Positions 9,146 through 41,459 of a stretch of DNA of 41,928 nucleotides are shown piece by piece. Source of the DNA: a virus. Its lineage: Duplodnaviria; Heunggongvirae; Uroviricota; Caudoviricetes. The first letter of the stretch is position 1; every line of letters begins with the position of its first letter. The stretch lies in the IMG/VR virus record IMGVR_UViG_2648501336_000002; one strand, 5' to 3'. A program made the position numbers and the translations under genes. The notes under the pieces are model-generated. The model worked only from the letters and a program-made list of their open reading frames with translations, was not told the origin of the DNA and ran no database searches.

Positions 9146-9147
9146 GC

Positions 9148-9450
9148 TTACTCCGTTGATACCAGTAAATGACTGCGACCGCCCAGGTCAGTTTTCGTGG
9201 GATAATCCTGTGTGTTGTCATCGCAGACCACCAACAGCTTAAAACCAAGCCCCATACAGGCGTACTGCGCCAGCAGATCAGCGCCAGTGACGAGAGGAAT
9301 ACCGGAGATTACCGGCTCTCCTCTGTCGTTCTGCAGGTCCATAATCCAGTAAGGATCTCGCCATATGATGCTAATCCGCCAGGTGGCACCACCCAGGACG
9401 ATGCTGAACTGCTGGTTGTCCGCTGTCAGCGGAATTTCCTGAATTGTCAT
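9148..9450 (-). CDS. Tail protein (hypothetical)
   Basis: 100 aa, tightly packed in the tail operon. Confidence 0.35.
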   Translation of the reverse strand: MTIQEIPLTADNQQFSIVLGGATWRISIIWRDPYWIMDLQNDRGEPVISGIPLVTGADLLAQYACMGLGFKLLVVCDDNTQDYPTKTDLGGRSHLLVSTE

Positions 9451-10037
9451 TAGCCGCCCCCCAGTAATGACGCCACGTTACCCGTGATGCTTTTCAGCAG
9501 TGAAGTATCTGGAGGCTTTGTGGTTTTGTTGCCGCTATTCTGTACCGCCGACGTGCTGGCCCCTTCCTTCATGTTGGTTTTATCCGCGACGGTAATCTGC
9601 TGTGTCCGGGAGATAAGGACCTCCCTCAGGGTGAGGACGGCGGACAGGACGTTTTCGGTTGTCTTGTCCGTCGTCACTTCCAGCGCCCGGATCAACATGT
9701 TGCTGTACAGTCGTTTACCGGTTACCACATCGAAGGGGATACGGCTTTCCTGCAGATCCAGTAGCTCCTGATACGTCTGCTGAGGACTCAGGCCGAGCAG
9801 GCTGGTAGCCGTCAGATTACTGGCAAAATCCAGCAATGCGCCGCCACCGGCGAAACCAACCTCCATCACCACTTCTGACGGTTTTTTATAGGCATGATCA
9901 GCGACAGCGGCCCCGACCTCTACCGGATGCTCTGTTATTTCAAGCATATCTGTATGCTTCTCTGAAATAACAACACTGGGAACAATCATTCCTATTTTTC
10001 TGCTCTGCTGATGAAAAAGTGTAGAGAGAATATCCAC
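9450..10037 (-). CDS. Tail protein (hypothetical, possibly Mu gp43-like)
   Basis: 195 aa immediately downstream of the tape measure. Confidence 0.35.
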   Translation of the reverse strand: MDILSTLFHQQSRKIGMIVPSVVISEKHTDMLEITEHPVEVGAAVADHAYKKPSEVVMEVGFAGGGALLDFASNLTATSLLGLSPQQTYQELLDLQESRIPFDVVTGKRLYSNMLIRALEVTTDKTTENVLSAVLTLREVLISRTQQITVADKTNMKEGASTSAVQNSGNKTTKPPDTSLLKSITGNVASLLGGG

Positions 10038-24395: not shown

Positions 24396-24755
24396 TTACT
24401 CCTTAGAGCCACCAAACTTGTTACCGATTACTCGCATTGCAGCCCCACGAATAGCATCCACACCGATCAGCCCAACACCACCACCAATGGCAACAGAAAG
24501 CGATTTAGGCCATCCAACATACTCAAGAGCGGATGCAAAGGTCAGCGTCAGAGCACCACAGAGCAAAATCTCAAGCGTTTTTCGTTTCCAGCCGCCGCCA
24601 CCGCCAAAATAGGCAATGCGCAAGCCAGCCATAACAATTGACATAACCACTGCGCCCAACGGCGTATCTCCACGCCACCAACTTTGTAAGAGTTCCAGTA
24701 AGTCAGGCCAGGAATGAGGAGCATTGTGCATTTTCATACTTCCCACCTCCGCCAT
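24396..24755 (-). CDS. Holin (S-like), possible dual-start motif
   Basis: 119 aa with TM segments and a charged C-terminus; MAEVGSMKM start region offers alternative Met codons; immediately upstream of the endolysin. Confidence 0.6.
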   Translation of the reverse strand: MAEVGSMKMHNAPHSWPDLLELLQSWWRGDTPLGAVVMSIVMAGLRIAYFGGGGGWKRKTLEILLCGALTLTFASALEYVGWPKSLSVAIGGGVGLIGVDAIRGAAMRVIGNKFGGSKE

Positions 24756-24837
24756 TACGGGGTGTTGTTGAAAGGCGGGCCCTGCGTATACGCCCGTAGG
24801 ATTGGGTTATGAGCCGTCCTTCGGTGGGCCCTGAATA

Positions 24838-24862
24838 CAAAAAAAGTTCGCCATAGCGAACC
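24838..24862 (-). terminator. Rho-independent terminator upstream of the lysis cassette (tR'-like)
   Basis: Minus strand: GTTCGC-TATG-GCGAAC followed by TTTTTTTG, about 85 nt upstream of the holin start and downstream of Q. Confidence 0.45.
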
Positions 24863-25140
24863 TTGTTAAATTTGTTAAAAAAGGAAGTTATTTAACATAA
24901 TGTATGTTATAGGAACCACACGATCACCGCTCGCAATAGATTTGCGATGAAAGGCCTATTTAATCAACTTAAGTGGTCCAGAATGACGAAATTCGAGTGA
25001 ATAAGAGGTGCATAAAAAAGGGCAAAAACTGCATAGCGTTTTTTCGCGACGAAAACCCTGTTTTATTAACTTTTACTGAGAATAGAGCATTAAAAAAGCC
25101 CCAATGATTTGGAGCTCTTCGTTGAGGTCAGAAATTCAAC

Positions 25141-25575
25141 TCATACCAGCGTAGCGCAGTTTTTGCGTAGCGCACTAATACTTTTTTCATCCCTTTGAAT
25201 TTCGACCTCAGGATCCATCTGAAGGCTCACACCCAGCATGCAGAGACACCCCTCAATGAATCCCTCTGCTACCTGCAACTGCTGGCGGATAAATCCTTCA
25301 GAACAGCGACGCCGCCGCCCTATCTCACGTTTGCTTAACCCGTAGACGTAGTACAGCATAATGACGTCCAGTTCCTCAGGCTTACGGACCTGCTGCAGCC
25401 GACAGACGCAAGCATCGATAATCAGGCCATCGTCGTCACAGCAACTCAGCCTGCCAGGCGAGCTGCTGACTACCAGCCCTTTAAATCCCGCCGCTATTGG
25501 AGCCCAGCTCACTGTGGTGTTGCTATCGGCAGCCCATCCACCCCAGCGCTCTAAAACCTGTTGAATATTACGCAT
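25141..25575 (-). CDS. Q: Late-gene antiterminator Q (phage 82/21-type)
   Basis: 144 aa; MRNIQQVLERWGGWAA...CCDDD...YYV pattern matches 82-type Q proteins; located before the late promoter region and lysis genes. Confidence 0.7.
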   Translation of the reverse strand: MRNIQQVLERWGGWAADSNTTVSWAPIAAGFKGLVVSSSPGRLSCCDDDGLIIDACVCRLQQVRKPEELDVIMLYYVYGLSKREIGRRRRCSEGFIRQQLQVAEGFIEGCLCMLGVSLQMDPEVEIQRDEKSISALRKNCATLV

Positions 25576-25639
25576 AGCTCTGACCTCTACGTTTTGCTAC
25601 GAAAAATTTTTCTGAGAACTACGTCTGTTTATCCGTGGG

Positions 25640-25648
25640 TGTGGATAA
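25640..25648 (-). promoter_or_regulatory. Consensus DnaA box (TTATCCACA)
   Basis: Plus strand reads TGTGGATAA; a degenerate inverted partner TTATCCGTG lies at 25629..25637. Confidence 0.4.
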
Positions 25649-25706
25649 CGCAGTTCCGATCCGCATATTGCATGTATCAACATGCAAAAAGTTGCTAATT
25701 CGGAGT

Positions 25707-25893
25707 GGAACCACCTGCCCCCACCTGGAACCACCTTTTCCTAACCTTTCCCTCAATCGACTTATATATATATGGGGTTTCTAGTAGAAAGGCGGTTCCA
25801 GTGGTTCCAGTAGTTCCGCCCCGCTTGCCACAAGGTCTGCAAGGTGGAACCACCTTCTCTTCTAGGTGGTTCCGCGTGGTTCCAGCGGTTCCC
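25707..25893. repeat. Iteron array (GGAACCACC / GGTGGTTCC) with AT-rich spacer: putative phage replication origin
   Basis: Three direct GGAACCACC copies (25707, 25727, 25846) and six GGTTCC-core copies in the opposite orientation in two triplets at 9-10 bp spacing; TATATATATAT at 25764..25774; overlaps the last codons of the primase-helicase gene. Confidence 0.6.
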
Positions 25894-28048
25894 AAACCTT
25901 GCATTTTTTCCCCCCAATTCGCCTTTGGGCACGCTTATACCCGCAATTTTGCAAAACATTACTAATTCGCATTTCTTCGCGTTTTCCGATGCGGTCAGGA
26001 TTTAGCCCAATCGCATCACGCAAAACATCACTTGCGCGTAAAAATTCGCAATTTCGCGGAAGTTCATTAGTCATCAGGTCGGGCGTGTCGAGCCATTTCT
26101 CTACCGTTTCAAGCCAAGCATCCTTGATGGTGTACTGTTCATGGACACTCGCTGCCAGTTGTTCAGCCTCACGGAACTGGATACCCCCCAGACGCTGAAA
26201 CACCTCACGAGCCTCAGCCCAAAGTAAAAGGAGATCTCTTTTTATCGCTTTCACGTCGACTTTCGACACTTCCACGGGGAGCCAGCGACGGTTACCAGTC
26301 TTGTCCGCAAGGAATTCGTCCTCATTAGTGGTACCAACGAACACCAGGCGACGAGGAAACTGGGTGGCGAACTCCCGGTATTTCGGGATCCAGTTTTCGT
26401 GAGTACGCGTCACAAACGCTTTGATTGACTCCAGCTCTTTGGTATTAAGTCCGCGCAGTTCACCAATCTCTGCCACCAGCCGACCACGCATTTTTCGAGC
26501 GAGATCATCGTCTTTTTCGGCAAAAGAGATTTCAGTAAAAAACGCAGGATCAGGGCTCAGTGCCTCCACTCCGGAAGACTTACCGCAGCCCTGCGGACCA
26601 ACGAGGATCGGCACCATATCCGCTTTGATGCCTGGCTCCAGTACTCGCCCCGCCAACGCGGTCCACATGTACATAGACACCGCACGGGTATAAGGCGTGT
26701 CGGCGGTACCGAAGTGCGTATGGTAGAAACATTCGATGCGCGGCACGCCATCCCACTCCAGTCCGTTCAGCCAGGTGATCGCTGAATCGAATGGTTGTTC
26801 ATCGGCTGCAAGTAACACCACATCGCGAATAAGTTCACGGCCAACAGGTTTAAATCCCCGCTTTTCCATCGTGATGCGCAGGCGCGCATAATCCGCATCG
26901 GTGAATGCCCGCCATTGTCCGGATCCTGCCGGGGCAAACATGATTTCGTCGCGGAACTGGTCAAAGCGAATATCGATGTCCACAAAATCAGAGCGTACTA
27001 CTGCTTTGGCTGCATTGCTGATGGTTGCCTCGATACGCCCCCATTTATCACGCTCGAAAGCAGGCAGCGGTAAAGGTTCCGCCACTTCGATGCTGGTCAG
27101 ATCTTCGAAATCGTCGTTGCGGATCCCGATGGCATTCAGGAAATCTCCGTCATCACGATGCGCGCAACTGGCATGCAGGCATTTAAAATGCCCCTGCTCA
27201 AAGCCTGCGGTTCCCGCAGGAAAATAAACTGTGCTTGTTGGATCGCCTCCGCTACTGTGGCCGTCTTCAAACGGACAGCGGATATATCGTTCACCGTTTG
27301 CGCCATCCAGCAGCGTCCAGCCATTGGCATCAAGATATTCAGCTGTATCATCCGTCGCGCCGGGCGTGAATGCTGAACGGTCGCGCATCTTCGTGTTGCC
27401 CGCTTCGGTGGTTACCGACACAGGGAGTTGTTCAGCCAGGCGCTGCCACAGCGTTTCAAGCTGCTCACCTGTAATAGCCGGAGGTTCATCCGGCAAACCA
27501 CCGTCCCATTCAATACGCGCGCCGCTGCTGTGCGTACCACAGGCAACGAACTGCTGCCCGTTCGCCAGCAACTCGATAATGCCCATATCCCCCGCCAGGC
27601 GATGGATACGCTTACGGAAATCACCATCAACGGCCAGCAGATACAGACACTTATTACTGTTTGCTCGCCAGCGTCGCGGCGGCGACTCACCCAGAAGTTG
27701 CACAAGTGTTTTGCGAATATCTGCCTGAATGTCTTCATCTTCGCTATCGCAGTCCAGCGCCAGCCAGCCATGGCCTGTACGCACGCAGATGCCATAATCC
27801 GGTTCATTCGACCAGCGGGCAAAATCATGCTCAGTAACAACATGCCCGGTCCATTGAGCAATACCTGTGACCTGGCGGTCCCGGTTATAGCGACTCGGCG
27901 TCTTACCCAACGCTTTCAATTTACTATCAGGGGATATGGTCGCACTGGGGTTACATACAACTGGGAGAAGATGAGCAGTCCGCCCCAATACCAGGTCGAA
28001 ATGAAACCACTCATCAGGCGTAGCTCCCCATGGTTTGCTATCGGACAT
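25862..28048 (-). CDS. Replication primase-helicase (PrimPol-like N-terminus plus P-loop helicase)
   Basis: 728 aa; acidic LALDCDSEDED motif in the N-terminal half, Walker A VGPQGCGKSS in the C-terminal half; first gene after cro. Confidence 0.7.
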   Translation of the reverse strand: MSDSKPWGATPDEWFHFDLVLGRTAHLLPVVCNPSATISPDSKLKALGKTPSRYNRDRQVTGIAQWTGHVVTEHDFARWSNEPDYGICVRTGHGWLALDCDSEDEDIQADIRKTLVQLLGESPPRRWRANSNKCLYLLAVDGDFRKRIHRLAGDMGIIELLANGQQFVACGTHSSGARIEWDGGLPDEPPAITGEQLETLWQRLAEQLPVSVTTEAGNTKMRDRSAFTPGATDDTAEYLDANGWTLLDGANGERYIRCPFEDGHSSGGDPTSTVYFPAGTAGFEQGHFKCLHASCAHRDDGDFLNAIGIRNDDFEDLTSIEVAEPLPLPAFERDKWGRIEATISNAAKAVVRSDFVDIDIRFDQFRDEIMFAPAGSGQWRAFTDADYARLRITMEKRGFKPVGRELIRDVVLLAADEQPFDSAITWLNGLEWDGVPRIECFYHTHFGTADTPYTRAVSMYMWTALAGRVLEPGIKADMVPILVGPQGCGKSSGVEALSPDPAFFTEISFAEKDDDLARKMRGRLVAEIGELRGLNTKELESIKAFVTRTHENWIPKYREFATQFPRRLVFVGTTNEDEFLADKTGNRRWLPVEVSKVDVKAIKRDLLLLWAEAREVFQRLGGIQFREAEQLAASVHEQYTIKDAWLETVEKWLDTPDLMTNELPRNCEFLRASDVLRDAIGLNPDRIGKREEMRISNVLQNCGYKRAQRRIGGKKCKVWEPLEPRGTT

Positions 28049-28051
28049 GGG

Positions 28052-28252
28052 TTACACCTTTTGTCTAGCTGTCACTTCCTGAAAAAGTTTTTCTATCGCA
28101 CGTACTGTAGAAAAGCGAGGGTCAGAATGAACCCCGGTAAGAAGCCGACTAATAGAAGACTGCTTCACGCCTGCAATTTCGGCAATTTGGTTTTGGGTAT
28201 ACCCTGAATCAATCAAGCTTTTGACCATCTCTTGTGGTGTTAGTCCGGACAT
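28052..28252 (-). CDS. cro: Cro-like HTH regulator
   Basis: 66 aa with HTH (YTQNQIAEIAGVKQSSISRLLTG), divergent from the CI-like gene. Confidence 0.6.
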   Translation of the reverse strand: MSGLTPQEMVKSLIDSGYTQNQIAEIAGVKQSSISRLLTGVHSDPRFSTVRAIEKLFQEVTARQKV

Positions 28253-28392: not shown

Positions 28393-29067
28393 ATGATTGA
28401 TACTACCGATATCCTTTCTCAAAACATCAAGTACCTGATGGACAAAGCCAAGATAAGCTCGATAACTGAGCTGGCACGTCGGTTACAGCTGAACCAACCA
28501 ACGCTACACAGGCTGGTATCAGGAGAGGTGAAAGATCCGAAATACGCAACGTTAAAGCAGATCGCCGACTACTTCCACGTGTCACCAATAGACTTGGCAG
28601 AAAGGAGCCTTCAAGAAATGGAGAAAGAGGACGCGACAGGTATAAAAACGTATATTTCTCTTAGGTTTAATAAAGTACCTGTTTTGGGAAACACTCAGCT
28701 AGGCGTTGGAGGACTTTGGAGCGACACCCAATATTCAGTAGGTAGCAGTGATGGTTTCATATACTGGCCGACAAAGGATGAAGATGCATACGCCCTGAAA
28801 TGTGTTGGTGATTCAATGATGCCTAGAATCAAAGAGGGGGAGTTCGTAATCGTCGAACCCAACCACGACTACACTCCTGGTGATGAAGTACTTGTGGTTA
28901 CCCGGGAAGGTGAGGTCATGGTTAAAACCTTCTTGTTCGAACGCGATGGCCTGTTCCATCTAATGTCTGTAAATGAAGATCATCCACCAGTCAGAGTACC
29001 ACGCGAAAACATTGAAAAAATCCATTACGTGGCGGGGATCGCCAAATCCGCGCTACGTATGTACTAA
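28393..29067 (+). CDS. cI: CI-like repressor (HTH plus S24 LexA-type autopeptidase domain)
   Basis: 224 aa; N-terminal HTH and C-terminal GDSM Ser with a downstream Lys (VMVKTF). Confidence 0.8.
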   Translation: MIDTTDILSQNIKYLMDKAKISSITELARRLQLNQPTLHRLVSGEVKDPKYATLKQIADYFHVSPIDLAERSLQEMEKEDATGIKTYISLRFNKVPVLGNTQLGVGGLWSDTQYSVGSSDGFIYWPTKDEDAYALKCVGDSMMPRIKEGEFVIVEPNHDYTPGDEVLVVTREGEVMVKTFLFERDGLFHLMSVNEDHPPVRVPRENIEKIHYVAGIAKSALRMY

Positions 29068-30234: not shown

Positions 30235-30384
30235 ATGAAACCTGAATACCTCCATCGACTGACGGGGCGCGATGTTCTCCGTTATCGCCGTAAAAACTTC
30301 GATTTGATGACCGGTCTGGCCGTTGCCACTGCGCTCGGTCTGATCATCACTTTCATTCTCCTTGTAGCGAGGACCACAGTATGA
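30235..30384 (+). CDS. Small membrane protein (49 aa), first gene of the early-left operon
   Basis: ATG at 30235 is preceded by AAGGAA (the track start at 30202 is a GTG); C-terminal TM helix LAVATALGLIITFILLV. Confidence 0.4.
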   Translation: MKPEYLHRLTGRDVLRYRRKNFDLMTGLAVATALGLIITFILLVARTTV

Positions 30385-31283
30385 GTTTAGAAACCAGTCT
30401 CGAACTTAATAATCAACTTCTGGCACAACATAATGCGCTGCTTGAACGTCTTATCCGCACAATGGCATCAGGCATTGTTATGCATCCTGACACGATTTCA
30501 CGAGTGCAGGAATGTCGGGATACAGCAACTGAAACTGAAAATATGTCAGCGGCAATGACACTGGATGATCTGGAGTTCAGCGACGTTATCGCACTGGCTG
30601 GTTTCTACCCGGTAGCCACCCCTATCACAGAAGACATGCTGCAACGTGCTGTTGCCTACCGTGATGCTGAAGGCGATAAACGAGTAGTTCAGATTGATGC
30701 TCTCGACAGCGCATTGCAGGGCGTCAAACGAGCCAGGGCGCTGCTTAAACCTGCTCTCCTGGACCTGTCCCGTAACATCCTTAAGTTCTGGGACGACCTG
30801 CCAACCATCGGCGAGCGACGTGTTTTTGCCGAGCAGCTACTTGATGCACCTGCGGATGGGCGTGATGAAGTTAAGCCGAAAAAGGCCAGTAACAAAGATG
30901 GAGAACGCACGGGGCCGTTTTACGTCAAAAATGTATCCGGCACAGCAGCCAGTGAACTCCACACCTTACGCAAGTTGAACGAGATGCTGAAAAAAGGCCA
31001 TATCGAGATCAACCGTGTTGAGTACCTTCAGCTGCAAGAAGAATTTGCACGCAGAGACGCAGCAAATTCCAGCCAGAATCATGACGCCAAAGATGACCAT
31101 ACAATTGATTTCGCGGCACTACGCAAACAAGCTGAAGGGTTGATCCTCCAGTTAGCAAAAGGGGGTTACCGGGCAGAAGCTATTGCAATTCTGGAAAAAC
31201 AGGGAGCCAGGAAACTTGGTGAAGTAACGGATGAAAATCTCGCTGAAGTAATCACCCTGGCTGAAAAAGCACTGGAGGGTTAA
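30381..31283 (+). CDS. Hypothetical early protein
   Basis: 300 aa, acidic and helical, translationally coupled to neighbours. Confidence 0.45.
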
Positions 31284-31285
31284 TC

Positions 31286-32587
31286 ATGCCAGACGTTCAT
31301 GCACAACTTTCTCCATCATCAGCGCATCGATGGATGCGCTGCCCAGGAAGTCTGGCGCTGGAGGCCACACAACCGGATAAAGAAACAACTTTTGCAATCG
31401 AGGGCACTGCAGCGCACGCGCTTGCTGAAAAAGTTCTACGAAACAGGCAAAGCTACCCGGAACACTACGCCGGATGCAATGTTTCTATGTTTCTCGGCTC
31501 ATACCCCCTTCGCGAAAATCCTGATGATACATCTGGCCCACAGGTGGATGATGAAATGGTCGAAGCCGTTGGCCGGTATGTTGATACGGTCTGGACTCTT
31601 GCACAGAATAATGAACTATTGGTTGAACAACGTGTTGATTTCTCACATATAACGGGTGTGGAAGAATCTTTCGGAACTGCCGACGGCATAATCATTGCTG
31701 GTAGCGAATTACAAATCCACGACCTGAAATATGGCAAAGGCGTCCGCATTGATGCAGAACAAAATGAGCAACTACAACTGTATGCTCTGGGTGCGCTCGA
31801 ACAATTCAGCATGCTGTATGACTTTGAGACTGTAAGATTATTTATTCACCAGCCAAGGCTCAACCACGTTTCAGAATGGTCGTTAACCGTACAGGAACTT
31901 CAGTCTTTCGGTGAACGGGCACTGGAGGCCGCAACCAGTGCGATCCTTGTTCTCAATATTGCTGAATGCGAAGGCATTGAGACACTACCGCTGGAAAACT
32001 TCATACCTGGAGAAAAACAGTGCCGCTTCTGTAAAGCAAAAGCTATTTGCACTGCCCAGAAAATGCAGCATTTACAAACAGCGGCCAGCGATTTTGAAGA
32101 TCTGACAAAGCCTGTCAGCGAAATAATCTCCAATGCCAGCGCACGTGTACCTCTGTTAACCATTGAGCAGCTTGCGGAGATCTATAGCCAGGCCGACTTT
32201 ATTGAATCCTGGCTAAAGGCAGTACGAGACCGGGTTCACAATGAACTCAATGCCGGACATCCGGTACCGGGGTTTAAACTGGTAACAGGAAAACAAGGTA
32301 ACCGGGCCTGGAGTGATGAAGAGGCAGCTCGCGCACTTCTGAAGGACCAGTTCAGGTACAAAACTGAAGAAGTATTCGACTTTAAACTTATTAGCCCCAC
32401 AAAAGCCGAAAAACTTATCAAAAAGGCCAGTCCGCGCCGTTGGTCAAAAGTCGAGGCACTGATAACACGAGCTGATGGTAAACCCACCATCGTTCCCGAG
32501 TCAGACCCACGCCCCGCACTCAATATCAACCCTGTAAATGATTTCGACGACGTATCCGACGATACGCTAACCGCAGACCTCATCTGA
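31286..32587 (+). CDS. PD-(D/E)XK Cas4-like exonuclease (DUF2800-type)
   Basis: 433 aa; IHDLKYGKG nuclease-like motif and a [10 protein letters not shown] cysteine cluster. Confidence 0.55.
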
Positions 32588-32602
32588 TTTAAGGAAATAC
32601 CC

Positions 32603-33151
32603 ATGAAACTGAAGCTGAACAATGTTCGTCTGGCCTTCCCGTCTCTGTTTGAAGCTAAAACTGTAAACGGCGAAGGCGATCCACGTTTCTCCGCAGTATT
32701 TTTAATGTCACCCAAACACCCACAACTGGAAGAAATCCGTAAAGCTATGAAGCAGGTAGCGAAGGAAAAATGGGGAGAGAAGTGGGAGCCCATTTATAAC
32801 CAACTGGAGAAAAAACTCAATCTGTGCCTGCATGATGGTGATGAAAAAGCAGAGTATGAAGGCTTCCCCGGCAATTTCTTCCTGAATGCTGCTAACAAAG
32901 CGCGCCCAGCTGTTCTTGATCGCGATCGTTCGCCACTTATTCAGGCTGATGGACGTCCCTATGCAGGGTGCTATGTAAACGCCGTTATCGATATCTGGGC
33001 ACAGGACAATAATTTCGGTAAACGCATTAATGCCTCACTCGGCGGAGTCCAGTTCCTGCGAGACGGCGATGCATTCGCTGGCGGCGGAGTGGCAAGCGCT
33101 GACGATTTCGACGATATCAGCGAAGGTGCTGATGCTGAAGCACTGATTTAA
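32603..33151 (+). CDS. Phage ssDNA-binding-like protein (DUF2815-type)
   Basis: 182 aa with an acidic C-terminal tail (DDFDDISEGADAEALI); lies between the nuclease and the polymerase. Confidence 0.5.
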   Translation: MKLKLNNVRLAFPSLFEAKTVNGEGDPRFSAVFLMSPKHPQLEEIRKAMKQVAKEKWGEKWEPIYNQLEKKLNLCLHDGDEKAEYEGFPGNFFLNAANKARPAVLDRDRSPLIQADGRPYAGCYVNAVIDIWAQDNNFGKRINASLGGVQFLRDGDAFAGGGVASADDFDDISEGADAEALI

Positions 33152-33166
33152 CCCTACTTCATAGAC

Positions 33167-33185
33167 GCCCGGTTAAATACCGGGC
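33167..33185. terminator. Stem-loop between convergent genes (weak terminator)
   Basis: GCCCGG-TTAAATA-CCGGGC; no strong U-tract on either strand. Confidence 0.3.
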
Positions 33186-33203
33186 TGCTGATTAGGCGTA
33201 TAA

Positions 33204-33833
33204 TCACTCAGGAATCTTAATCTTCCTCAATTCTTTATTTAGTTCACAGATCTTCTTCTTAGACGGGAAAGTATCATACATCCAAAAACCAACAGTCTCT
33301 AAAACTATTGTCATAACCATATACACAAGATAATTTAAAAGGCCTTCATTTTGCCCTATGGAAATAATGCAGATAATAGAAAAAAGGATAAACAGCACAA
33401 AACACAGAAAGGAAAACAGACGACTAATAATAAATAAAAAACCTGAAAAATTAACATTGATGAAAAACACTCCGTTATCTTTCTCTATATAATTCTGAAG
33501 CTTAATCACCTGATTTATATACTGTCTTTTTTCTAATCTATTGCAAATGTAAATAACATCACTTCGGTTATAAGAAGATTGCAATTTCAGCGCATCACGA
33601 ATAATTTTATCATTTATTCTTTTTTCTATGGCACTCTTATCCTCCTTATCCAGATAACGTTCATACTTAACTAAATATAAAATTAACTTCTTGACATATT
33701 TAGGCTCTTTATACTTATAATTAAAAATGATCTTTCTTATCCAGACTCCCATAACAATCAAACATGAAAAAATATATCCAGCTATTTTCTCCAGATGCTC
33801 TGTATGGTCAATCAAGTATTGGATCATATGCAT
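33204..33833 (-). CDS. AT-rich membrane protein (about 3 TM), antisense moron; candidate exclusion / abortive-infection protein
   Basis: 209 aa, strongly AT-rich, Lys/Ile/Tyr-rich; hydrophobic segments near the N-terminus and at about residues 125-170; opposite strand to the flanking replication genes. Confidence 0.5.
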   Translation of the reverse strand: MHMIQYLIDHTEHLEKIAGYIFSCLIVMGVWIRKIIFNYKYKEPKYVKKLILYLVKYERYLDKEDKSAIEKRINDKIIRDALKLQSSYNRSDVIYICNRLEKRQYINQVIKLQNYIEKDNGVFFINVNFSGFLFIISRLFSFLCFVLFILFSIICIISIGQNEGLLNYLVYMVMTIVLETVGFWMYDTFPSKKKICELNKELRKIKIPE

Positions 33834-33879
33834 AATTAATCTTTTAATCAGTTAATAGAATAAAAACCAAGGTAAACAC

Positions 33880-35943
33880 ATGTCCAATATACTATGGGGC
33901 GACCTGGAAACCTATTGCGAAATCCCTATTACGAACGGTACCCATGCGTATGCCGAAGGCGTTGAAGTGATGCTGTTCGCATGGGCTATCAACGACGGGC
34001 CAGTAAACGTATGGGATATCACTGCCGGTGGTGGTATTCCACACGGCTTATACGAAGCAATCGCAGCCCCTGAAACCCTGCTTTATTTTCATAACTCTCA
34101 CTTCGACCGCACCGTCCTGCGTTATGCAATGCCGCGACTGGCACCGCCAGTCGAACGTTGGCGCGACACGATGGTGCAGGCGCTGGCGCACGGTCTCCCG
34201 GGGTCTCTGGGGGAACTCTGCGAAGTACTAGGCGTCCCGCAAGACAAAGCGAAGGACAAAGAAGGTAAAGCGCTGATCCAGCTGTTCTGTAAGCCACGCC
34301 CGAAAAACAGCAAACTGCGCCGGGCCACCAGCAAAACCCACCCGGAAGAATGGCGGCGCTTTGTTGCTTACGCCGGACTGGATATCGAGGCAATGCGCGA
34401 AGTCTATAAACGTCTGCCGAAGTGGAATTATCAGGGGACAGAACTGGCGCTCTGGCATCGTGATCAGCAGATCAATGACCGGGGCGTCTGCATGGACGTG
34501 GAACTCGCACGCGCTGCGATCGACGCGGTAGACCAGGAACAAAAGCGCCTGGCAAAGCGTACACAGGAAATGACTGATGGCGAAGTGCAGGCAGCCACAC
34601 AACGAGACGCGTTGATTAAGCACATTGTTGAATCCTACGGTGTGGAGCTACCAGACATGCAACGCAGTACTCTGGAACGTCGTATTGCCGACCCCGATTT
34701 ACCATCTGCCGTGAAAGAACTGCTGGCTATCCGCCTGCAGGCCAGTACTACCAGCACCAGTAAATACAAGGCACTGATGAAAGGCGTAAGCCACGACGGG
34801 CGCTTACGCGGTACGCTACAGTTCTGCGGGGCGTCACGTACCGGTCGTTGGGCCGGACGGCTATTCCAGCCCCAGAACCTTCCCCGCCCTTCACTAAAAC
34901 AGGAACAAATAGACGAAGGCATCGAAGCACTGAAAGCCGGATGTGCAGACCTGCTGTTTGACAATATCATGGAACTAACCAGTTCAGCGTTACGTGGCTG
35001 CATTATCGCGCCAACAGGCAAAAAGCTGGTGGTAAGTGACTTGTCGAACATTGAAGGCCGTATGCTGGCATGGCTGGCGGGAGAAGAATGGAAACTGAAT
35101 GCATTCAGAGAGTACGACGCCGGAACGGGTCCGGACTTATATAAACTGGCGTATGCAAAAGCTTTCGATATTGCACCAGATGATGTTGATAAACACATGC
35201 GTCAGATCGGTAAAGTCATGGAACTCGGTCTGGGTTATGGAGGAGGTGTATCGGCTTTCATCACTTTTGCTCTGGTTTACGGTCTCGATCTCGACGGGCT
35301 GGCGAACGCCGCACTGCCAAACATTCCCCGCGATGTTATCCGCGAGGCGAAAAGCTGGTACGACGAATCGGTTAAACGTAAATCGACCTACGGGCTTTCT
35401 GAACGGGTATTTATCGCCTGCGACTCACTTAAACGTCTCTGGCGCCGGGCGCATCCCGCGACCTGTGATTTCTGGTACGAACTGGAGTGCACCGTCCGCA
35501 CAGCAATCGCCACACCGCAAAAAACATTGTATTGCGGTTATCTTAAAATCCGCCGCGATGGCGCGTGGCTGCGCATACAGCTACCATCCGGACGCGCTGT
35601 ATGCTACCCGTCTCCGGTTATCGAACAAGGGAATATCACCTACATGGGTGTTAACTCTTATTCGCGTAAATGGCAACGACTCAAAACCTACGGCGGAAAG
35701 CTGGTGGAGAACGTCACCCAGGCGGCCGCCCGCGACGTTCTGGCCGGAAACATGCCGCTTATCGAAGATGCCGGTTACAGCATTGTGCTGACGGTACACG
35801 ACGAGGTGATCACCGAATCACCTGACACAGAAGATTTCAACGATAAAGCGCTTTCCGCGCTTCTCTCCACTAACCCCGAATGGGCGCCAGATATCCCACT
35901 GAACGCTGGCGGTTTTGAGGCGTACCACTACCGTAAGGATTAA
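33880..35943 (+). CDS. DNA polymerase, family A (T7/Pol I-like) with 3'-5' exonuclease domain
   Basis: 687 aa; Exo I-like DLETY; motif A-like SDLSNIEGR; motif B-like [12 protein letters not shown]; motif C VHDEV. Confidence 0.85.
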
Positions 35944-35948
35944 CTCCT

Positions 35949-36164
35949 ATGTCATTTAAATACCGGGACAATCCACTTTATTACAGGGCTGCAAGGGAGG
36001 CTTTGCGACTTGAACAATCCGGCGAATATGACCGGGCAGCGAAGGTCTGGGCAAAAGCCAACCGCGAATCACATCACGAACTGAATCAGGAATGGAGTGA
36101 ACGCAGATCTGATTTTTGCCTGATGCAGAATATGCGTGAAAAGCGTAAGGCGGTCGAAGAATGA
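35949..36164 (+). CDS. Small regulatory protein, possibly PerC-like
   Basis: 71 aa; AREALRLEQSGEYDRAAKVWAKA resembles PerC-family proteins (recollection only). Confidence 0.35.
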   Translation: MSFKYRDNPLYYRAAREALRLEQSGEYDRAAKVWAKANRESHHELNQEWSERRSDFCLMQNMREKRKAVEE

Positions 36165-36460
36165 TCGTTTACGTTGCCGGGCCGATGAGCGGTTACGAGC
36201 AATTTAACCGCCCGGCTTTTCATTCCGCAGCAAAGAGGCTAACGGACAAGGGATATGTTGTGCTTAACCCCGCAACTTTACCCAATGGTTTGACACAGGC
36301 TCAGTATATGGACATCTGCCTCGCAATGCTTCGCTGTGCCGATACGATTTATATGCTCAAAGAGTGGGAGTACTCTGCTGGCGCACGTGCAGAAAACGCG
36401 TTGGCAGAGAAACTGGAATTGAATGTGCTTTTTGAAGAGTGGGATTCAGATGGCCTATGA
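36161..36460 (+). CDS. Nucleoside 2-deoxyribosyltransferase-like protein (DUF4406-type)
   Basis: 99 aa beginning MIVYVAGPMSG. Confidence 0.4.
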   Translation: MIVYVAGPMSGYEQFNRPAFHSAAKRLTDKGYVVLNPATLPNGLTQAQYMDICLAMLRCADTIYMLKEWEYSAGARAENALAEKLELNVLFEEWDSDGL

Positions 36461-36719
36461 ACGTGAAAGCCTTATCGAAAAGCACCTCGTCGCTGAAGTG
36501 AAAAAAGCTGGCGGAGTGGCCTTTAAGTTTGTATCTCCCGGTCACCGCTCGGTACCGGATCGCATTGTCCTGCTACCAGGTGGTCGTATCGTTTTCGTTG
36601 AATGTAAATCTCCCGGCAAGCCACCACGGCCTGACCAATTGCGCGAACATGAACGTCTGCGAAAACTGGGCTTTACCGTAGTGGTGCTGGATAGCAAGAA
36701 CCTAGAGAGGATATTATAA
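36450..36719 (+). CDS. VRR-NUC domain nuclease
   Basis: Likely ATG at 36450 (MAYERESLIEKHL); PD-(D/E)XK-type motif PDRIVLL...VFVECK; precedes the SNF2 helicase as in typical VRR-NUC/SNF2 pairs. Confidence 0.6.
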   Translation: MAYERESLIEKHLVAEVKKAGGVAFKFVSPGHRSVPDRIVLLPGGRIVFVECKSPGKPPRPDQLREHERLRKLGFTVVVLDSKNLERIL

Positions 36720-36723
36720 AAAT

Positions 36724-37293
36724 TTAGTCAATGCCTTTTTGATTGAACTTCTGATTCTCCAGTATGCTTTGCAGCTCAATATTATCATTTGCAGCGGTTT
36801 GTTTATGCTCATGATATTTTTCTTGCGTATAATTTCTTTCTCTTAGTTTCTGTGCGTAATTATTAGAAATAATATCATGACGATCTTGTAATACTTGTTC
36901 AAGTTGACTTTTAAAGTCCTCTATCTTTTCATTAGAAATAACATTTTTGTACTTTTCAATATCACGGCGAAGTTCTTTTTCTTTCTTCTTATTAATGCTT
37001 AATAACTGTCGATTAACGCTACCTAAGGACCATTTAAACCCAATCGACTTTATCCAATGCGCCAGAAACATAGCGCAACTGGGAAGCATTAATAAAAGAA
37101 ATGGCTTTATTGTATTTAAATCAGAACCAATATACGGAAAACGACCGTCCCACGAGGACACCAGTAATGTTAAAAAACCAGTGATGCCACCAGCAGCAAC
37201 ATTAGAAATCAGAGGGACTTTTTCGTAGCTATCAGGTTTAGAAGCGCTACTCAAACGTCCCTCCTTTGACTGATCTTCCAGCACGAATGGCAT
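36724..37293 (-). CDS. Membrane protein with charged coiled-coil C-terminus (third gene of the antisense cassette)
   Basis: 189 aa, AT-rich; two hydrophobic helices (about residues 30-48 and 63-85) then a Lys/Glu-rich helical tail. Confidence 0.45.
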   Translation of the reverse strand: MPFVLEDQSKEGRLSSASKPDSYEKVPLISNVAAGGITGFLTLLVSSWDGRFPYIGSDLNTIKPFLLLMLPSCAMFLAHWIKSIGFKWSLGSVNRQLLSINKKKEKELRRDIEKYKNVISNEKIEDFKSQLEQVLQDRHDIISNNYAQKLRERNYTQEKYHEHKQTAANDNIELQSILENQKFNQKGID

Positions 37294-37495
37294 TCATTGC
37301 AATTTTGTAAAATTCATCATCAGAAGAGACATCAACGACATCGCGACGGACAACTCCTTCTGAGTCAACACATTCAAGAACAAGATGATGTTTAGGCATA
37401 AGCGCAAAGCGTAACCGGTCAAACCCCATCTTAAGAACCCAATATAGTACGGGAAGCAGGCTAAAAAAAGCCAGCCAAAAAGCAAAAGCAATCAT
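37247..37495 (-). CDS. Small membrane protein (second gene of the antisense cassette)
   Basis: 82 aa; N-terminal TM helix IAFAFWLAFFSLLPVLYWVL; overlaps the downstream gene by 47 nt. Confidence 0.4.
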   Translation of the reverse strand: MIAFAFWLAFFSLLPVLYWVLKMGFDRLRFALMPKHHLVLECVDSEGVVRRDVVDVSSDDEFYKIAMNAIRAGRSVKGGTFE

Positions 37496-37518
37496 AGCCC
37501 CCTCCCCATGTGAATCTA

Positions 37519-38397
37519 CTATAAGATGCCGTGTACTTTAACAACTATGTACGTTTTGTCCAGCGAATTCAAGTTCTCACGGACGAGCAAATCAACGCAG
37601 TAAGCATCACTAAAAACACCAGGTTCTCTTCCCGTACTAACACGTTGTAAGAACTCAGTATCTTCTATAGACACGCTGATTGTGTCATCGCCATAGTTGA
37701 CTCGCCAGCCTGTGTTTTTATCCTTATGAATAGTCAAAAATGTGATTAGAGCCTCTTCAATCACCCTTTCAGACAAGGACTGCACTACAGGAACGCGCCT
37801 ATATCTGAACGGTTCAATATTATCTTCGTGCACCTTAATCAGCTCAACCCCCTGTTGAGTTGAAATTTTAAGCGATTCGTATCCTTCCTTTTGCAAAGGA
37901 TTATGAATTAACTTCGATAAGGATTTGCGTATGCTTGGTGAGGCAAGTAAAGGCCGGAAATATGACGGGGCTATAATTTCCTCACCATCATCCATAACTA
38001 TTTTACAGTCTCCTTCCGCTGTTAAAGTCAACCGTTTTATTTGCCTACCATTGATCTGACGAATTAAGTCAATGAGAGTATTTCCTGCTGCGAGTGCAGT
38101 TGTACCTCCAAGCCCAATAATGCTTAATATATTCAAATGGTCAAGTGGATTTTGAATAACATCAATCAAATACTCAAATGAGCCTTCCTTAAAAGGCTCA
38201 ACCTCAACATTAATACACTCACTAGTGCCATTGACAACCAAATTAACTTCTTTAAGCAAGTTGTTTAGTCCATTCAATGACTCAGTTAAAACATCCAAAT
38301 CTATTTTATGATCTGCTAGTGCGGGACCATCATATTTAACAACTAATTTATCAGTAATATTTTCTTCTTGCTGGACATCTGTATAAGCTGAGGTCAT
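37519..38397 (-). CDS. Hypothetical soluble protein (first gene of the antisense cassette)
   Basis: 292 aa, AT-rich, no recognisable catalytic motif; AAGGAA Shine-Dalgarno 7 nt upstream of the ATG at 38397. Confidence 0.5.
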   Translation of the reverse strand: MTSAYTDVQQEENITDKLVVKYDGPALADHKIDLDVLTESLNGLNNLLKEVNLVVNGTSECINVEVEPFKEGSFEYLIDVIQNPLDHLNILSIIGLGGTTALAAGNTLIDLIRQINGRQIKRLTLTAEGDCKIVMDDGEEIIAPSYFRPLLASPSIRKSLSKLIHNPLQKEGYESLKISTQQGVELIKVHEDNIEPFRYRRVPVVQSLSERVIEEALITFLTIHKDKNTGWRVNYGDDTISVSIEDTEFLQRVSTGREPGVFSDAYCVDLLVRENLNSLDKTYIVVKVHGIL

Positions 38398-38464
38398 AAC
38401 TGTTCCTTTCGAAATAAATAATTAAGCTATTACTACATAAGTTCATTCATGGAGATACAATACC

Positions 38465-39862
38465 ATGGACTATGCTATATTTTCACCTCACCCCTACCAA
38501 GATCTCATCATCAATCATCAAATCGACATTATGCGCTGCAACATCTGGGCAGGTATGGGAATGGGTAAAACCGTGGCAACGCTCACTGCGCTGGAAGATC
38601 TTTTTATGGCAGGGGCAGAAACACGCCCCGCACTGGTCCTCGCGCCGCTACGTGTTGCAGCAAACACCTGGCCGGATGAAGCAGTGAAGTGGGGGCATTT
38701 GCGCAATATCGAGGTGCAGCCGATTGTTGGTAATGCCAAAGCGCGCTCTACGGCGCTGGCGAACAGCAACGCAAGCGTGTTCACCATCAACTACGATAAC
38801 CTTGTCTGGCTGGTTGAAGAATTGGGAGAACGATGGCCGTTCGGTATTGTCATTCCAGATGAAAGCACCCGGCTAAAATCCTTCCGGCTGCGAGGTGGTG
38901 GTAAGCGCGCGGCGGCACTGGGCAAAGTGGCGCATAAGTATGTCCGGCGCTGGATAAATCTCACCGGTACGCCAGCACCGAACGGCCTGGTAGATTTGTG
39001 GGGACAATCGTGGTTTGTGGACCAAGGGCAACGTCTCGGGCGCACTTACGGTGCGTTTACCTCACGCTGGTTCAACTCGATACAGTTTCCGGGACAGAGC
39101 TGGACTAAACTGGAGCCTTTTGCTCACTCACAGGGTGAAATACAGCGAGCATTAGCCGATGTGACCCTCTCGCTAGATGCGGCCGACTGGTTCGATATCA
39201 AAGACCCCATCCATAACGTAATCCGCGTGGATATGCCGCCGAAGGCCCGTCAGCAGTATCGTGAAATGGAAAAGGAAATGTTCCTCGAGCTGAATGGCGA
39301 AGGCATCGAAGCACCGAACGCCGCGGCAAAGACACTGAAGTGTCTTCAAATCGCCAGTGGCGCAGTATACACAGACGACACCGGAAGTTGGTCAGAACTG
39401 CATGACACCAAACTACAGGCGCTGGACAGCATACTGACCGAAGCAGCTGGCGCACCTGTGCTGGTTGCTTATCACTGGAAACACGATCTTGAACGCTTGC
39501 TTAAAGCATTCCCTCGCGGTCGTCACCTCGACCAGGATCCACAGACACTGCGCGACTGGAATTCCGGAAAGATTCCTGTTCTCTTTGCACACCCAGCCAG
39601 CGCGGGCCACGGCCTGAACATGCAGGACGGCGGAAATATACTGGTATTTTTCTCACACTGGTGGGACCTGGAGCAATATCAGCAAATTATTGAACGTATC
39701 GGCCCCACCAGGCAGATACAGGCCGGACACAATCGTCCGGTATTTATTCACCACATTATTGCTGCCGACACTATGGACGAAATGGTGATGGAGCGGCGCA
39801 ACTCAAAACGAACAGTGCAGGACATCCTGCTCGATGCCATGAAAAAGAGAGGTATAGCATGA
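38465..39862 (+). CDS. SNF2-family helicase
   Basis: 465 aa; motif I GMGKT, motif II IPDESTR. Confidence 0.8.
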   Translation: MDYAIFSPHPYQDLIINHQIDIMRCNIWAGMGMGKTVATLTALEDLFMAGAETRPALVLAPLRVAANTWPDEAVKWGHLRNIEVQPIVGNAKARSTALANSNASVFTINYDNLVWLVEELGERWPFGIVIPDESTRLKSFRLRGGGKRAAALGKVAHKYVRRWINLTGTPAPNGLVDLWGQSWFVDQGQRLGRTYGAFTSRWFNSIQFPGQSWTKLEPFAHSQGEIQRALADVTLSLDAADWFDIKDPIHNVIRVDMPPKARQQYREMEKEMFLELNGEGIEAPNAAAKTLKCLQIASGAVYTDDTGSWSELHDTKLQALDSILTEAAGAPVLVAYHWKHDLERLLKAFPRGRHLDQDPQTLRDWNSGKIPVLFAHPASAGHGLNMQDGGNILVFFSHWWDLEQYQQIIERIGPTRQIQAGHNRPVFIHHIIAADTMDEMVMERRNSKRTVQDILLDAMKKRGIA

Positions 39863-40059
39863 GCGAGAAACCCGACGATTTACTCACCCCGGATGAAGTA
39901 TGCCAAAAGTTAGGTATTACACAGAAAACGCTATGTGAGTGGAATATTAAGCATCGTCATCGGGCTATCCTGGCACCAATTCGTTTCAGTGCAAAAGTAG
40001 TTCGTTATGAGCGCCGCAATGTCGACGCTTTTATTCAAAAGTGTCGCAGCCGGTATTAA
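39859..40059 (+). CDS. AlpA/excisionase-like small DNA-binding protein
   Basis: 66 aa; LTPDEVCQKLGITQKTLCEW HTH typical of AlpA-type regulators, adjacent to the integrase. Confidence 0.55.
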   Translation: MSEKPDDLLTPDEVCQKLGITQKTLCEWNIKHRHRAILAPIRFSAKVVRYERRNVDAFIQKCRSRY

Positions 40060-41459
40060 CCTCGCCGCCGTAGCAATGCCACCTGCGCAAGTATGCTCCG
40101 CTCGTGAGCCTCGAAAGCTTCGCGCTTTAACGCAATCTCTTCCTGCAAAATCTCATCAGAAAAGTCGTAATGTTCTGCCATCGGGTCATCTGACTTGCTG
40201 GAGTGGTGAAGGCAAAGGAGGCTGATTTCCCTTCGGTCTGATCGGGAATAGCCTCTTTCCTTCATCAAGGCAATAACATTGCTCTTAAGGAATTTACGGC
40301 ACATCGTATTAAATGCACCGTCTTTCCCTTTAACAGTCCCATCATGTTTTATTCCTTTTACAGCCCCATCCGGGCTGTATGTTTTCACTAGCTTATCCAG
40401 TGATCGTTTTGAAAATGGCTGCATTGGATCACGCGGCTGCAAAAATACATAATCCCTGTTGCACTCAGGAACTGAATCACGCCATGCTTTCTGCTCGTCG
40501 ATAATCCGCCGGATCTCCGGCGTTATTGGCAGGCGGAAAGCCTTTTGTGTTTTCATAGCCCCTCGCATGCCGATAACCCCTTCAGGATAAACAATTTCGC
40601 CAGTCTCCTCGTGAACGTAGTCCCAGCGCAGGTTATGGACATTAATCGGACGAACGCCGGTGATGATCATGAAGCGAACAGCATTCTTCTGGTGTACAGA
40701 GGTGCAGGCGGCAACATTGAGCCAGAGCCGGGCGATTGACTCAATATCGGTAAAAAGCCGTGTGGGGGTGGGTTTCTGTACGCGGGAGGAAACATAATCA
40801 TCTGGCAGACTGGCAGCAACATTGCGACCGTTACAAAGAGTAGGTGCGCAGAACTTCCAGAACCGACGGAGCTCGGCAAACAACTCCAGGGCGTTATTGT
40901 TCGAGCGAGTGGCGATCCACTCGTCCAGCACTTCCACCAGCCGATTGTATGTTACGTCGCTGAACACCTCACGCTCGCCGAACGTTGCTTTAATCCGGTC
41001 GATACGCACCCCGTAGGTTGTGAAACTGTCCGGGCTCAGCTTCTGCCGGGCGACTTTGGCTTTGAGGTCATCCCGGTACATTTCCAGCGCTGCATGTACG
41101 GACTCTGCCCGCAAGCCACCGTCAGCCATACCTAGCGCTTTTTCGCGCGCCAGCTGGATAGCGAGCTCCGGCCACTCGCCGAGCTTTTTACCCTTGAGGC
41201 CCATCTTTTTTGGAAACTCGGCGTAAAATGTAACCTTACCGGCTTTGCTGAAATCGATACGGAGATAGTTCTCTTTTTCGTATTTGGAACGGCGAGCCAC
41301 GCCGGAAGCAGCGAGGATGATTTTGGCGGCAGCAACACAGATTTTCATGTGTGCGCTGGTATAGGGGGGTTTACAGGCGTCCCATTTTTCAGATGCGGCT
41401 AAAACATCGTCATTATTGGGGCTATCCGGATTATGTGTTACAGTGCGCGGCATTCTCAA
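40056..41459 (-). CDS. int: Tyrosine integrase (P4-type); true start probably internal
   Basis: 467 aa in the track; N-terminal arm-binding-like region and C-terminal catalytic region with a conserved His/Arg/Tyr context; prophage end next to yfhL. Confidence 0.8.
   Translation of the reverse strand: MRMPRTVTHNPDSPNNDDVLAASEKWDACKPPYTSAHMKICVAAAKIILAASGVARRSKYEKENYLRIDFSKAGKVTFYAEFPKKMGLKGKKLGEWPELAIQLAREKALGMADGGLRAESVHAALEMYRDDLKAKVARQKLSPDSFTTYGVRIDRIKATFGEREVFSDVTYNRLVEVLDEWIATRSNNNALELFAELRRFWKFCAPTLCNGRNVAASLPDDYVSSRVQKPTPTRLFTDIESIARLWLNVAACTSVHQKNAVRFMIITGVRPINVHNLRWDYVHEETGEIVYPEGVIGMRGAMKTQKAFRLPITPEIRRIIDEQKAWRDSVPECNRDYVFLQPRDPMQPFSKRSLDKLVKTYSPDGAVKGIKHDGTVKGKDGAFNTMCRKFLKSNVIALMKERGYSRSDRREISLLCLHHSSKSDDPMAEHYDFSDEILQEEIALKREAFEAHERSILAQVALLRRRG

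Follow-up and report, generated by a model that had tools for sequence, protein, structure and literature searches.

The closest proven analogues of the system discussed here come from satellite elements. In the Staphylococcus aureus pathogenicity islands (SaPIs) the Rep helicase is itself the initiator: its C-terminal winged-helix domain binds the iterons of the origin, and no loader is needed (PMC9371898). The same paper puts 6 to 12 iterons directly 3' of rep, in two halves that flank an AT-rich centre and point in opposite directions (PMC9371898). Gram-negative phage-inducible chromosomal islands (PICIs) have the same origin layout, which the authors called unique to PICIs, and a rep-ori segment from one of them, EcCICFT073, drives plasmid replication; autonomous replication from gene plus origin is established for SaPIs as well (PMC6092414). 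Here we describe a repeat array at the end of a primase–helicase gene in a 41,928-bp stretch of viral DNA (IMG/VR record IMGVR_UViG_2648501336_000002; the window, from here on). The window is a complete, temperate Escherichia coli prophage rather than a satellite, and it encodes replication proteins of its own.

We consider it very probable that positions 25706-25893 are the vegetative origin of this temperate, contractile-tailed prophage, and that the origin is of the SaPI/PICI Rep-ori type. The case is comparative and by homology. The architecture of the array is conserved, its iterons switch in concert from one relative to the next, and the adjoining gene encodes a homologue of a proven self-loading initiator-helicase, which together argue for an origin. 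An earlier note on this DNA had proposed an iteron origin beside the gene of its own initiator, and the same three lines of evidence strongly favour that proposal.

The repeat array

Ten sites of 9-10 bp with a GGAACC core lie at 25706-25893, nine of them good and one degenerate, in both orientations. The earlier note had counted at least nine such copies, had seen two triplets spaced at about one helical turn, and had placed the cluster across the 3' end of the primase–helicase gene. So it proves: the spacing is 9-10 bp, the conserved triplets are those at 25792-25818 and 25706-25735, and the last three sites, the A array, fall within the final 10 codons of the gene. The end of the array farthest from the gene is 159 bp beyond the stop codon, and a flank box lies just past it. 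The elements are these.

25683..25704, unstranded: flank box beyond the D array, TGCAAAAAGTTGCTAATTCGGA; in gene orientation GAAC.TGTAATTT.TTGC
25706..25735, plus strand: D array, three iterons with a period of exactly 10 bp, directed at the TA-run spacer; TGGAACCACC (25706-25715), the degenerate TGCCCCCACC (25716-25725) and TGGAACCACC (25726-25735)
25736..25791, unstranded: central spacer, candidate DNA-unwinding element, with a TATATATATAT run at 25763-25773
25792..25818, minus strand: C array, three iterons with a period of 9 bp, opposed to the D array on the other side of the spacer; GCGGTTCCA (25792-25800), GTGGTTCCA (25801-25809) and GTAGTTCCG (25810-25818, the last a GGAACT)
25845..25855, plus strand: B iteron, TGGAACCACCT, inverted relative to the A array
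25865..25893, minus strand: A array, three iteron 9-mers (25866-25874, 25876-25884 and 25885-25893)
25862-28048, minus strand: primase–helicase gene, 728 codons for amino acids, stop codon 25862-25864

Clustering is not a matter of chance composition. The GGAACC hexamer occurs 17 times in the 41,928 bp, 8 of them within 25707-25892. Allowing at most one mismatch, TGGAACCAC has 18 matches in the window, seven of which (including all five exact ones) fall in 25706-25884; in whole-window shuffles the mean was 8.8 matches and 18 was never reached, and the chance expectation per 190 bp is about 0.04. Outside the 190-bp cluster the window holds no exact iteron, and the 11 one-mismatch matches there are single and scattered. 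Within the cluster, C (minus) and D (plus) are oppositely oriented and face one another around the TA-run spacer, the two-set arrangement of SaPI and PICI origins. B and A2 form a 10-bp inverted repeat with 8 nt between them.

The array has counterparts in a collection of loci made up of 86 from viral and genome collections, 12 reached via exact-protein look-ups, the phage APSE-1 and the Caulobacter phage Jess A. Its layout is kept in about 100 loci, spread across Enterobacterales prophages, the Yersinia phages YeP4-6, the APSE phages of aphid symbionts and Caulobacter phages. Read in the orientation of the gene, the order is A1 and A2 (+), B (-), about 34 bp, C1-C3 (+, 9-bp period), the spacer, D1-D3 (-, 10-bp period) and the flank box; the spacer after C3 is about 57 bp long and reads AACCCC(AT)nAAGTCG...GGGAAAGGTTAG. 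Distances are kept too. In about 75 of 79 close relatives the array sits at near-fixed offsets from the stop codon, with the inverted triplet (the D equivalent) at about +129 to +170, while the 9-bp C triplet holds the same offset in nearly all of them and the B iteron lies at +5 to +30. Copies at the gene end number two or three (in L002 the stop codon falls inside the first), and the third copy, at 25885-25893 in the window, is present only in some GGAACC-class loci.

What changes is the repeat itself. The first four relatives had the layout of the window with other repeats: E. coli ECONIH2 and TUM1880 have TGTACCAAC, E. coli B-JRPT-4119 has TGTTACCAC and Yersinia phage YeP4 has TAGACAACC. 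There are at least 15 iteron classes, GGAACCAC, GTACCAAC, GTCCCAAC, GTTACCAC, GTAACCAC, TAGACCACC, TAGACAACC and GCAACCAC among them, and the copies within one locus change in concert. Relatives whose proteins are just 44-52% identical keep the layout and carry unrelated iterons (TTCCCCTT, TACTCAACC). Where two loci differ in repeat, the spacer averages 82% identity, against 67% for the iteron columns and 58% for the wing codons (the wing is a segment near the end of the primase–helicase, described below); the repeats therefore change together and the scaffold is retained.

Two groups of loci vary the arrangement. The Xenorhabdus prophages L103 and L104 carry 5-9 perfect tandem 9-bp copies (TGTAACCAA) 0-80 bp past the helicase stop codon, against 2-3 elsewhere. 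In L016 and L063, of the GGAACC class, the helicase C terminus is 8 residues longer (…PLEPPKREGGSTLQAL) and the entire iteron array lies about 24-33 bp nearer the stop codon than in other loci.

The primase–helicase as the probable initiator

From N to C terminus the protein comprises an archaeo-eukaryotic primase (AEP) Prim-Pol domain (PF09250 is found at the N terminus of its homologues), a Cys/His-rich segment, a VapE-type superfamily 3 (SF3) helicase (Pfam VapE-like domain, residues 427-639, E = 2.4e-60) and a C-terminal domain. The Walker A lysine of the helicase is K490. A protein search found 1371 homologues. The protein is a homologue of SaPI1 Rep. A phmmer comparison with the Rep chain of Protein Data Bank entry 7pds gives E = 7.5e-34 over residues 393-657, and a Foldseek search with the full-length AlphaFold2 (AF2) model, whose predicted local distance difference test (pLDDT) score is 71.8, aligns about 450 columns of that 451-residue chain at E = 4e-20. 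After 7pds, the Foldseek matches are African swine fever virus PrimPol, NrS-1, pRN1 ORF904, poxvirus E5 helicase and adeno-associated virus Rep68.

The C-terminal domain is where a SaPI Rep binds its iterons, and two stretches of the gene are needed to follow the argument.

25865..26119, minus strand: codons of the C-terminal domain, residues 644-728, predicted winged-helix topology H-H-H-beta-beta
25886..25909, minus strand: codons of residues 714-721 (KKCKVWEP), second strand of the predicted wing

In the AF2 model the helices span residues 644-653, 672-680 and 689-701, the hairpin strands 704-711 and 714-721, and pLDDT is 70-85 for most of the domain. The third helix, whose place in the fold makes it the candidate for the recognition helix, hardly varies from one iteron class to another. 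Modelled alone from a single sequence the domain came out poorly (pLDDT 56), and a fold search with that model was not significant (best E 0.25); its weak matches included several winged-helix proteins, none of them significant.

We propose that initiation runs as follows. The 728-residue protein would act as its own initiator, its winged-helix domain binding the 9-10 bp iterons. The facing triplets C and D would each bring helicase to one side of the spacer. The conserved (TA)n spacer would melt, and the helicase would load itself without a separate loader. Its Prim-Pol domain would then prime, with the family-A polymerase and the single-stranded DNA-binding protein of the phage carrying out elongation. 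The A and B sites at the gene end may serve as an auxiliary binding cluster.

Wing residues and iteron specificity

Which part of the protein goes with the repeats? The window and its relative L001 have different iterons and primase–helicases that are 98% identical; differences cluster into a block only over the last 13 or so residues. Across the collection, the segment of residues 714-721 is the only one in the protein that co-varies with iteron class; residues 1-700 are up to 99.9% identical between classes. The segment carries a motif, GK-x-x-[KR]-x-[WF], that follows the iteron class, each version mapping to one class or to two close ones.

KCKVW, KSKVW, KCKLW, KCKIW and KRKVW: GGAACCAC
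MTRIF: GTACCAAC
KMRIF: GTCCCAAC
KQRIW: GTCCCCAC
LMKVW: GTTACCAC
VQRVW: GTAACCAC (once GTTACCAC)
VLKVW: GTA[A/T]CCAC
QIRVW: TAGACCACC
QQRIF: TAGACAACC

The mapping predicts. Known wing motifs were taken on backbones 65-73% identical to the window protein, and the DNA downstream was then inspected. KCKVW led twice to GGAACCAC, MTRIF to GTACCAAC, and VLKVW to a mixture of GTAACCAC and GTATCCAC (GTAWCCAC), each as predicted. On comparative evidence, initiator and iterons come matched and element-specific, in at least 15 classes and with four predictions confirmed. Iterons of the TAGACAACC class are common to the YeP4 group (QQRIF) and the L040 group (QQRVF), despite spacers of different classes. 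Some of the correspondence reaches down to single positions. Every iteron fits N6-7 followed by ACC, and the base before ACC is C in 14 classes whose motif ends in W and A in 7 whose motif ends in F, with one exception (Fisher's exact p = 5e-5 on classes, which are non-independent). QQRVW occurs with TAGACCACC and QQRVF with TAGACAACC, one residue for one base.

A bolder proposal can be built on this, and on it our own opinion is evenly divided. It holds that 2-5 residues of the second wing strand (the GK-x-x-[KR]-x-[WF] motif) set the iteron that is recognised, the third helix staying constant, and that wing codons and origin together make a 300-bp specificity cassette that recombines between otherwise identical phages. 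Specificity would come mainly from residues 715-719, and the invariant third helix would read the constant ACC end. If true, the cassette has given rise to at least 15 specificity groups of replicons, with competition among co-resident prophages, or satellites exploiting the initiator of a helper, as a possible driving force. The loci also offer a natural series for how the wing of a winged helix reads DNA: at least 15 matched wing–iteron pairs on near-identical backbones.

An alternative accepts the origin and looks for its reader elsewhere. The iterons would be read by another phage protein, or by some part of the initiator outside the wing strand, and the association of wing with iteron would be linkage within a recombining 300-bp cassette. 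We think this unlikely. No other protein co-varies with the repeats. One and the same Cro protein is found with 4 iteron classes, one CI protein with 2 (in three separate cases) and one downstream protein with 6; the window and L001 have the same TerS (100% identity) and nearly the same Q (99.3%). TerS, Q, Cro and CI were accordingly rejected as the iteron binder, being identical (Q nearly so) beside different iterons, and host factors were rejected as several iteron classes occur within E. coli alone. Linkage would also have to live with the recurrence of the same wing–iteron pairs on the 65-73% identical backbones and, in YeP4 and L040, beside a different class of spacer. Among loci of one class the wing residues are almost constant while their codons differ, mostly at synonymous sites.

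Several points nevertheless weigh against our reading, and a number of them favour linkage. The wing codons lie only 0-45 bp from the iterons; because they adjoin, co-inheritance of the two is largely expected from linkage. L014 and L070 are near-identical over 7.4 kb, from -6.2 kb to +1.2 kb, except for a compact 300-bp island of wing codons and origin with about 100 differences, which looks like a cassette swapped by recombination. (The flanks of the island are near-identical in this pair, and in the window and L001 from -2.2 kb to +3.3 kb, which speaks against a reader encoded there.) The mapping is not strictly one-to-one, VQRVW occurring with both GTAACCAC and GTTACCAC. APSE-1, with VCRVW and GTAACAACC iterons, is the exception to the W/C correspondence, and a strict rule of W = C and F = A was rejected on its account. 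A conservative test on three independent within-series contrasts gives p = 0.25, not significant alone. SaPI1 Rep1 told origins apart poorly in vitro, and the authors of that work considered that a further, still unidentified factor might confer specificity (PMC9371898). Beyond the question of the reader, the winged-helix assignment comes from an AF2 model of moderate confidence, the central spacer outside the TA run is only moderately AT-rich, and it is by analogy that the array is given a function in replication.

Other readings of the array

Early rightward transcription toward the antiterminator gene Q passes through the array, which might instead be mainly a device of transcriptional control, an operator or roadblock between the replication gene and Q that times the late genes or autoregulates the early operon. 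The A2-B inverted pair (25845-25874) lends this some colour: it is predicted to fold stably in the transcript (a hairpin of about -18 to -21 kcal/mol), relatives have a short U run after it, and the terminator of the P4 alpha gene is at the equivalent position. We rate this reading as very improbable all the same. The array is equally conserved in 47 loci where the first open reading frame (ORF) after it is not Q, and in YeP4 and Jess A, which have no Q there. Promoter and terminator scans of 25576-25861 and of the equivalent region of L002 returned nothing, and two facing triplets around a TA run match proven origins and have no obvious regulatory logic. The array could conceivably play both parts, as origin and in transcriptional control.

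A packaging (pac/cos) or partition site has next to no probability left, for although repeated short protein-binding sites are also known from cosB/pac regions and centromere-like sites, TerS stays the same between the window and L001 despite their different repeats, the array is 2.3 kb from terS beyond Q and the lysis genes, and the phage has an integrase and no partition gene among the ORFs scanned.

Spacer, flank box and accessory elements

The elements between and beyond the triplets differ in how well they are kept. The alternating TA stretch singled out in the earlier note (25763-25773) is universal among the relatives, with a median length of 12 nt and a range of 6-18 nt, and its flanks, CGACT and GGGGTT, are conserved with it. 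L001 and L003, otherwise identical E. coli prophages, differ by one TA unit in this run (L001 about 3283-3296); because they differ in length by a TA dinucleotide, the run is non-coding. The flank box keeps its core, TTTTTGC / TTTATTGC, in 15 of 15 aligned representatives, YeP4 included.

Three further features lie between the flank box and Q or across the box.

25629..25648, unstranded: inverted repeat TTATCCGTGGGTGTGGATAA, containing the DnaA box
25640-25648, minus strand: DnaA box TTATCCACA, the sole exact DnaA box in the window
25668..25687, unstranded: palindrome TTGCATGT-N4-ACATGCAA

The earlier note had counted the DnaA box and the TTGCATG/CATGCAA palindrome toward the origin. Both are where it saw them, and neither is a conserved part of it. 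An exact DnaA box is found in 23 of 31 loci that have Q first after the origin, against 0 of 47 with another ORF first, and the box was rejected on conservation as a core origin element: it travels with the leader of the Q gene and is an accessory. The locus is in this respect not a DnaA-assisted origin of the plasmid RepA type, in which conserved DnaA boxes are part of the origin. A neighbouring sequence, TTATCCGTG, has 3 mismatches and was rejected as a DnaA box. The inverted repeat that contains the box may be bound by DnaA or by another dimer and so influence read-through into Q. As for the palindrome, 14 of 79 relatives have it, each a GGAACC-class locus with Q downstream, and L001 and L002 lack it; it was rejected as a functional part on the same grounds and is probably incidental.

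The A2-B hairpin has counterparts at 3335-3372 in L001 and 3305-3345 in L002. The U run after it reads AUUUUAAC or UUUUUAAC in most relatives; the window has other sequence there. An Rfam search of 24700-26200 gave just two matches, both at chance level and outside the repeat region.

The prophage around the probable origin

The virion genes, at 1-23 kb, are of the contractile-tail type and encode portal, protease, major head, tail sheath, tape measure, baseplate and tail-fibre proteins. The control and replication genes follow.

25141-25575, minus strand: Q antiterminator
286 bp: gap between the primase–helicase gene and Q
28052-28252, minus strand: Cro-like helix-turn-helix protein
28393-29067, plus strand: CI-type repressor
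31286-32587, right of cI: DUF2800 PD-(D/E)XK nuclease
32603-33151, right of cI: Enc34-type single-stranded DNA-binding protein
33880-35943, right of cI: family-A DNA polymerase (PolA)
38465-39862, right of cI: SNF2 helicase
40056-41459, right of cI: integrase

The replication gene set of the prophage spans 30381-39862, beside a lambda-type CI/Cro/Q control region. On the 3' side of Q come, in order, holin, endolysin, spanin, TerS and TerL. A late promoter and its first terminator, on which Q antitermination would act, are expected in the gap between Q and the holin gene (24756-25140). At 24843-24864 in this gap, on the minus strand and 3' of Q, the sequence AAGGTTCGC-TATG-GCGAACTTT TTTTGT resembles a terminator, having a hairpin and a T run. 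Two patches of the window are low in GC, 1-1000 (33.5%) and 33001-34000 (36.4%), against about 50%. Within the second, between the genes for the single-stranded DNA-binding protein and the polymerase, is a 209-codon ORF (33204-33833, minus strand) without a Pfam match, which may be an inserted accessory gene.

The module is not a rarity. Window positions 25500-26000 are 100% identical to two complete E. coli chromosomes, and the replication module, searched with the same segment, is matched in 140 of 5426 complete E. coli genomes (about 2.6%). A copy in E. coli IAI1 (NC_011741.1, 2749387-2749887) is 99.4% identical to that segment. The module is present, too, in prophages of Salmonella, Enterobacter, Klebsiella, Citrobacter, Serratia, Yersinia and Xenorhabdus, and in the APSE phages. 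For all of these our reading would supply an origin and a mechanism of initiation.

Comparison with known systems

Satellite phage P4 was the model put forward in the earlier note, and there is some reason for it. The P4 alpha protein binds its origin, and P4 too has primase and helicase in one polypeptide, with type-1 repeats (crr) directly after the 3' end of the gene. In the P4 ori the type-1 repeats (CTGTTCACC, L091 9310-9413) run 3(-), 1(+), 2(-), and AT-rich sequence separates the (+) repeat from the last two, so that their arrangement, and partly their sequence, resembles C-B-A here. There are also differences. P4 depends on two cis regions, ori (9086-9809) and crr (4291-4590), some 4.5 kb from each other, where we find one 190-bp cluster. 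The primase of P4 alpha is of the DnaG/TOPRIM type and the one here is an AEP Prim-Pol. BLASTP against P4 alpha detects no similarity (best E 0.68), for which membership of the P4 family was rejected, and P4 gives way to the SaPI/PICI Rep-ori system as the closest proven analogue.

Lambda has a comparable arrangement of early and late control genes (CI, Cro, Q). In lambda the iterons occupy the middle of gene O. Their reader is the N-terminal domain of O, which enlists the host DnaB helicase through P. As here, the iterons overlap the initiator gene, members of the group have different matched initiator–iteron specificities, and the origin lies within the early rightward operon and is transcribed through. 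Unlike in lambda, the initiator is itself helicase and primase; between cI and Q there are only Cro and the primase–helicase, and no O or P homologues.

The same gene order, cI, a single PF09250 Prim-Pol protein and Q, is that of Eru10, a replication unit of Shiga toxin (Stx) phages (PMC8951638). We liken the two, and see the relevance of our locus to these phages, by gene order: the Eru paper classifies gene content alone, describes no origin and says that the replication of Eru phages is unstudied (PMC8951638). The APSE phages of Hamiltonella defensa are closer in sequence, their P3 helicase being 72% identical to residues 312-720. APSE-1 (L092, NC_000935) has the same layout of iterons and TA run 3' of the P3 gene, with GTAACAACC iterons at 3300-3610, and differs by an extra, mirrored outer set at about 3560-3605. 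Its record has no origin feature and annotates a hypothetical ORF, P4 (3445-3666), across the TA run and iterons; this ORF is probably not a gene. No description of an origin in the APSE phages or Eru10 was found in the literature searched, coverage of which is incomplete, so there may be an earlier one.

That leaves the satellites with which we began. SaPI1 Rep, SaPI5 PriRep and EcCICFT073 have, like this phage, a VapE-type SF3 helicase as initiator, sometimes fused to a primase, with an origin immediately 3' of its gene made of two opposed sets of short iterons that differ between elements. The iterons here are longer, 9-10 bp against 5-6 bp, and the A/B cluster that overlaps the gene end is an extra. 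The elements that carry the origins differ as well. A PICI is a satellite of about 10-15 kb without virion structural genes; the element here, a full prophage, is about 40 kb long and brings its own terminase (TerS and TerL), lysis, integrase and virion genes, DNA polymerase and CI/Cro/Q. The PICI-type origin layout is not, then, exclusive to satellites. Judged by sequence, the locus appears to have everything that marks a SaPI/PICI Rep-ori replicon, but it has it within a complete prophage.

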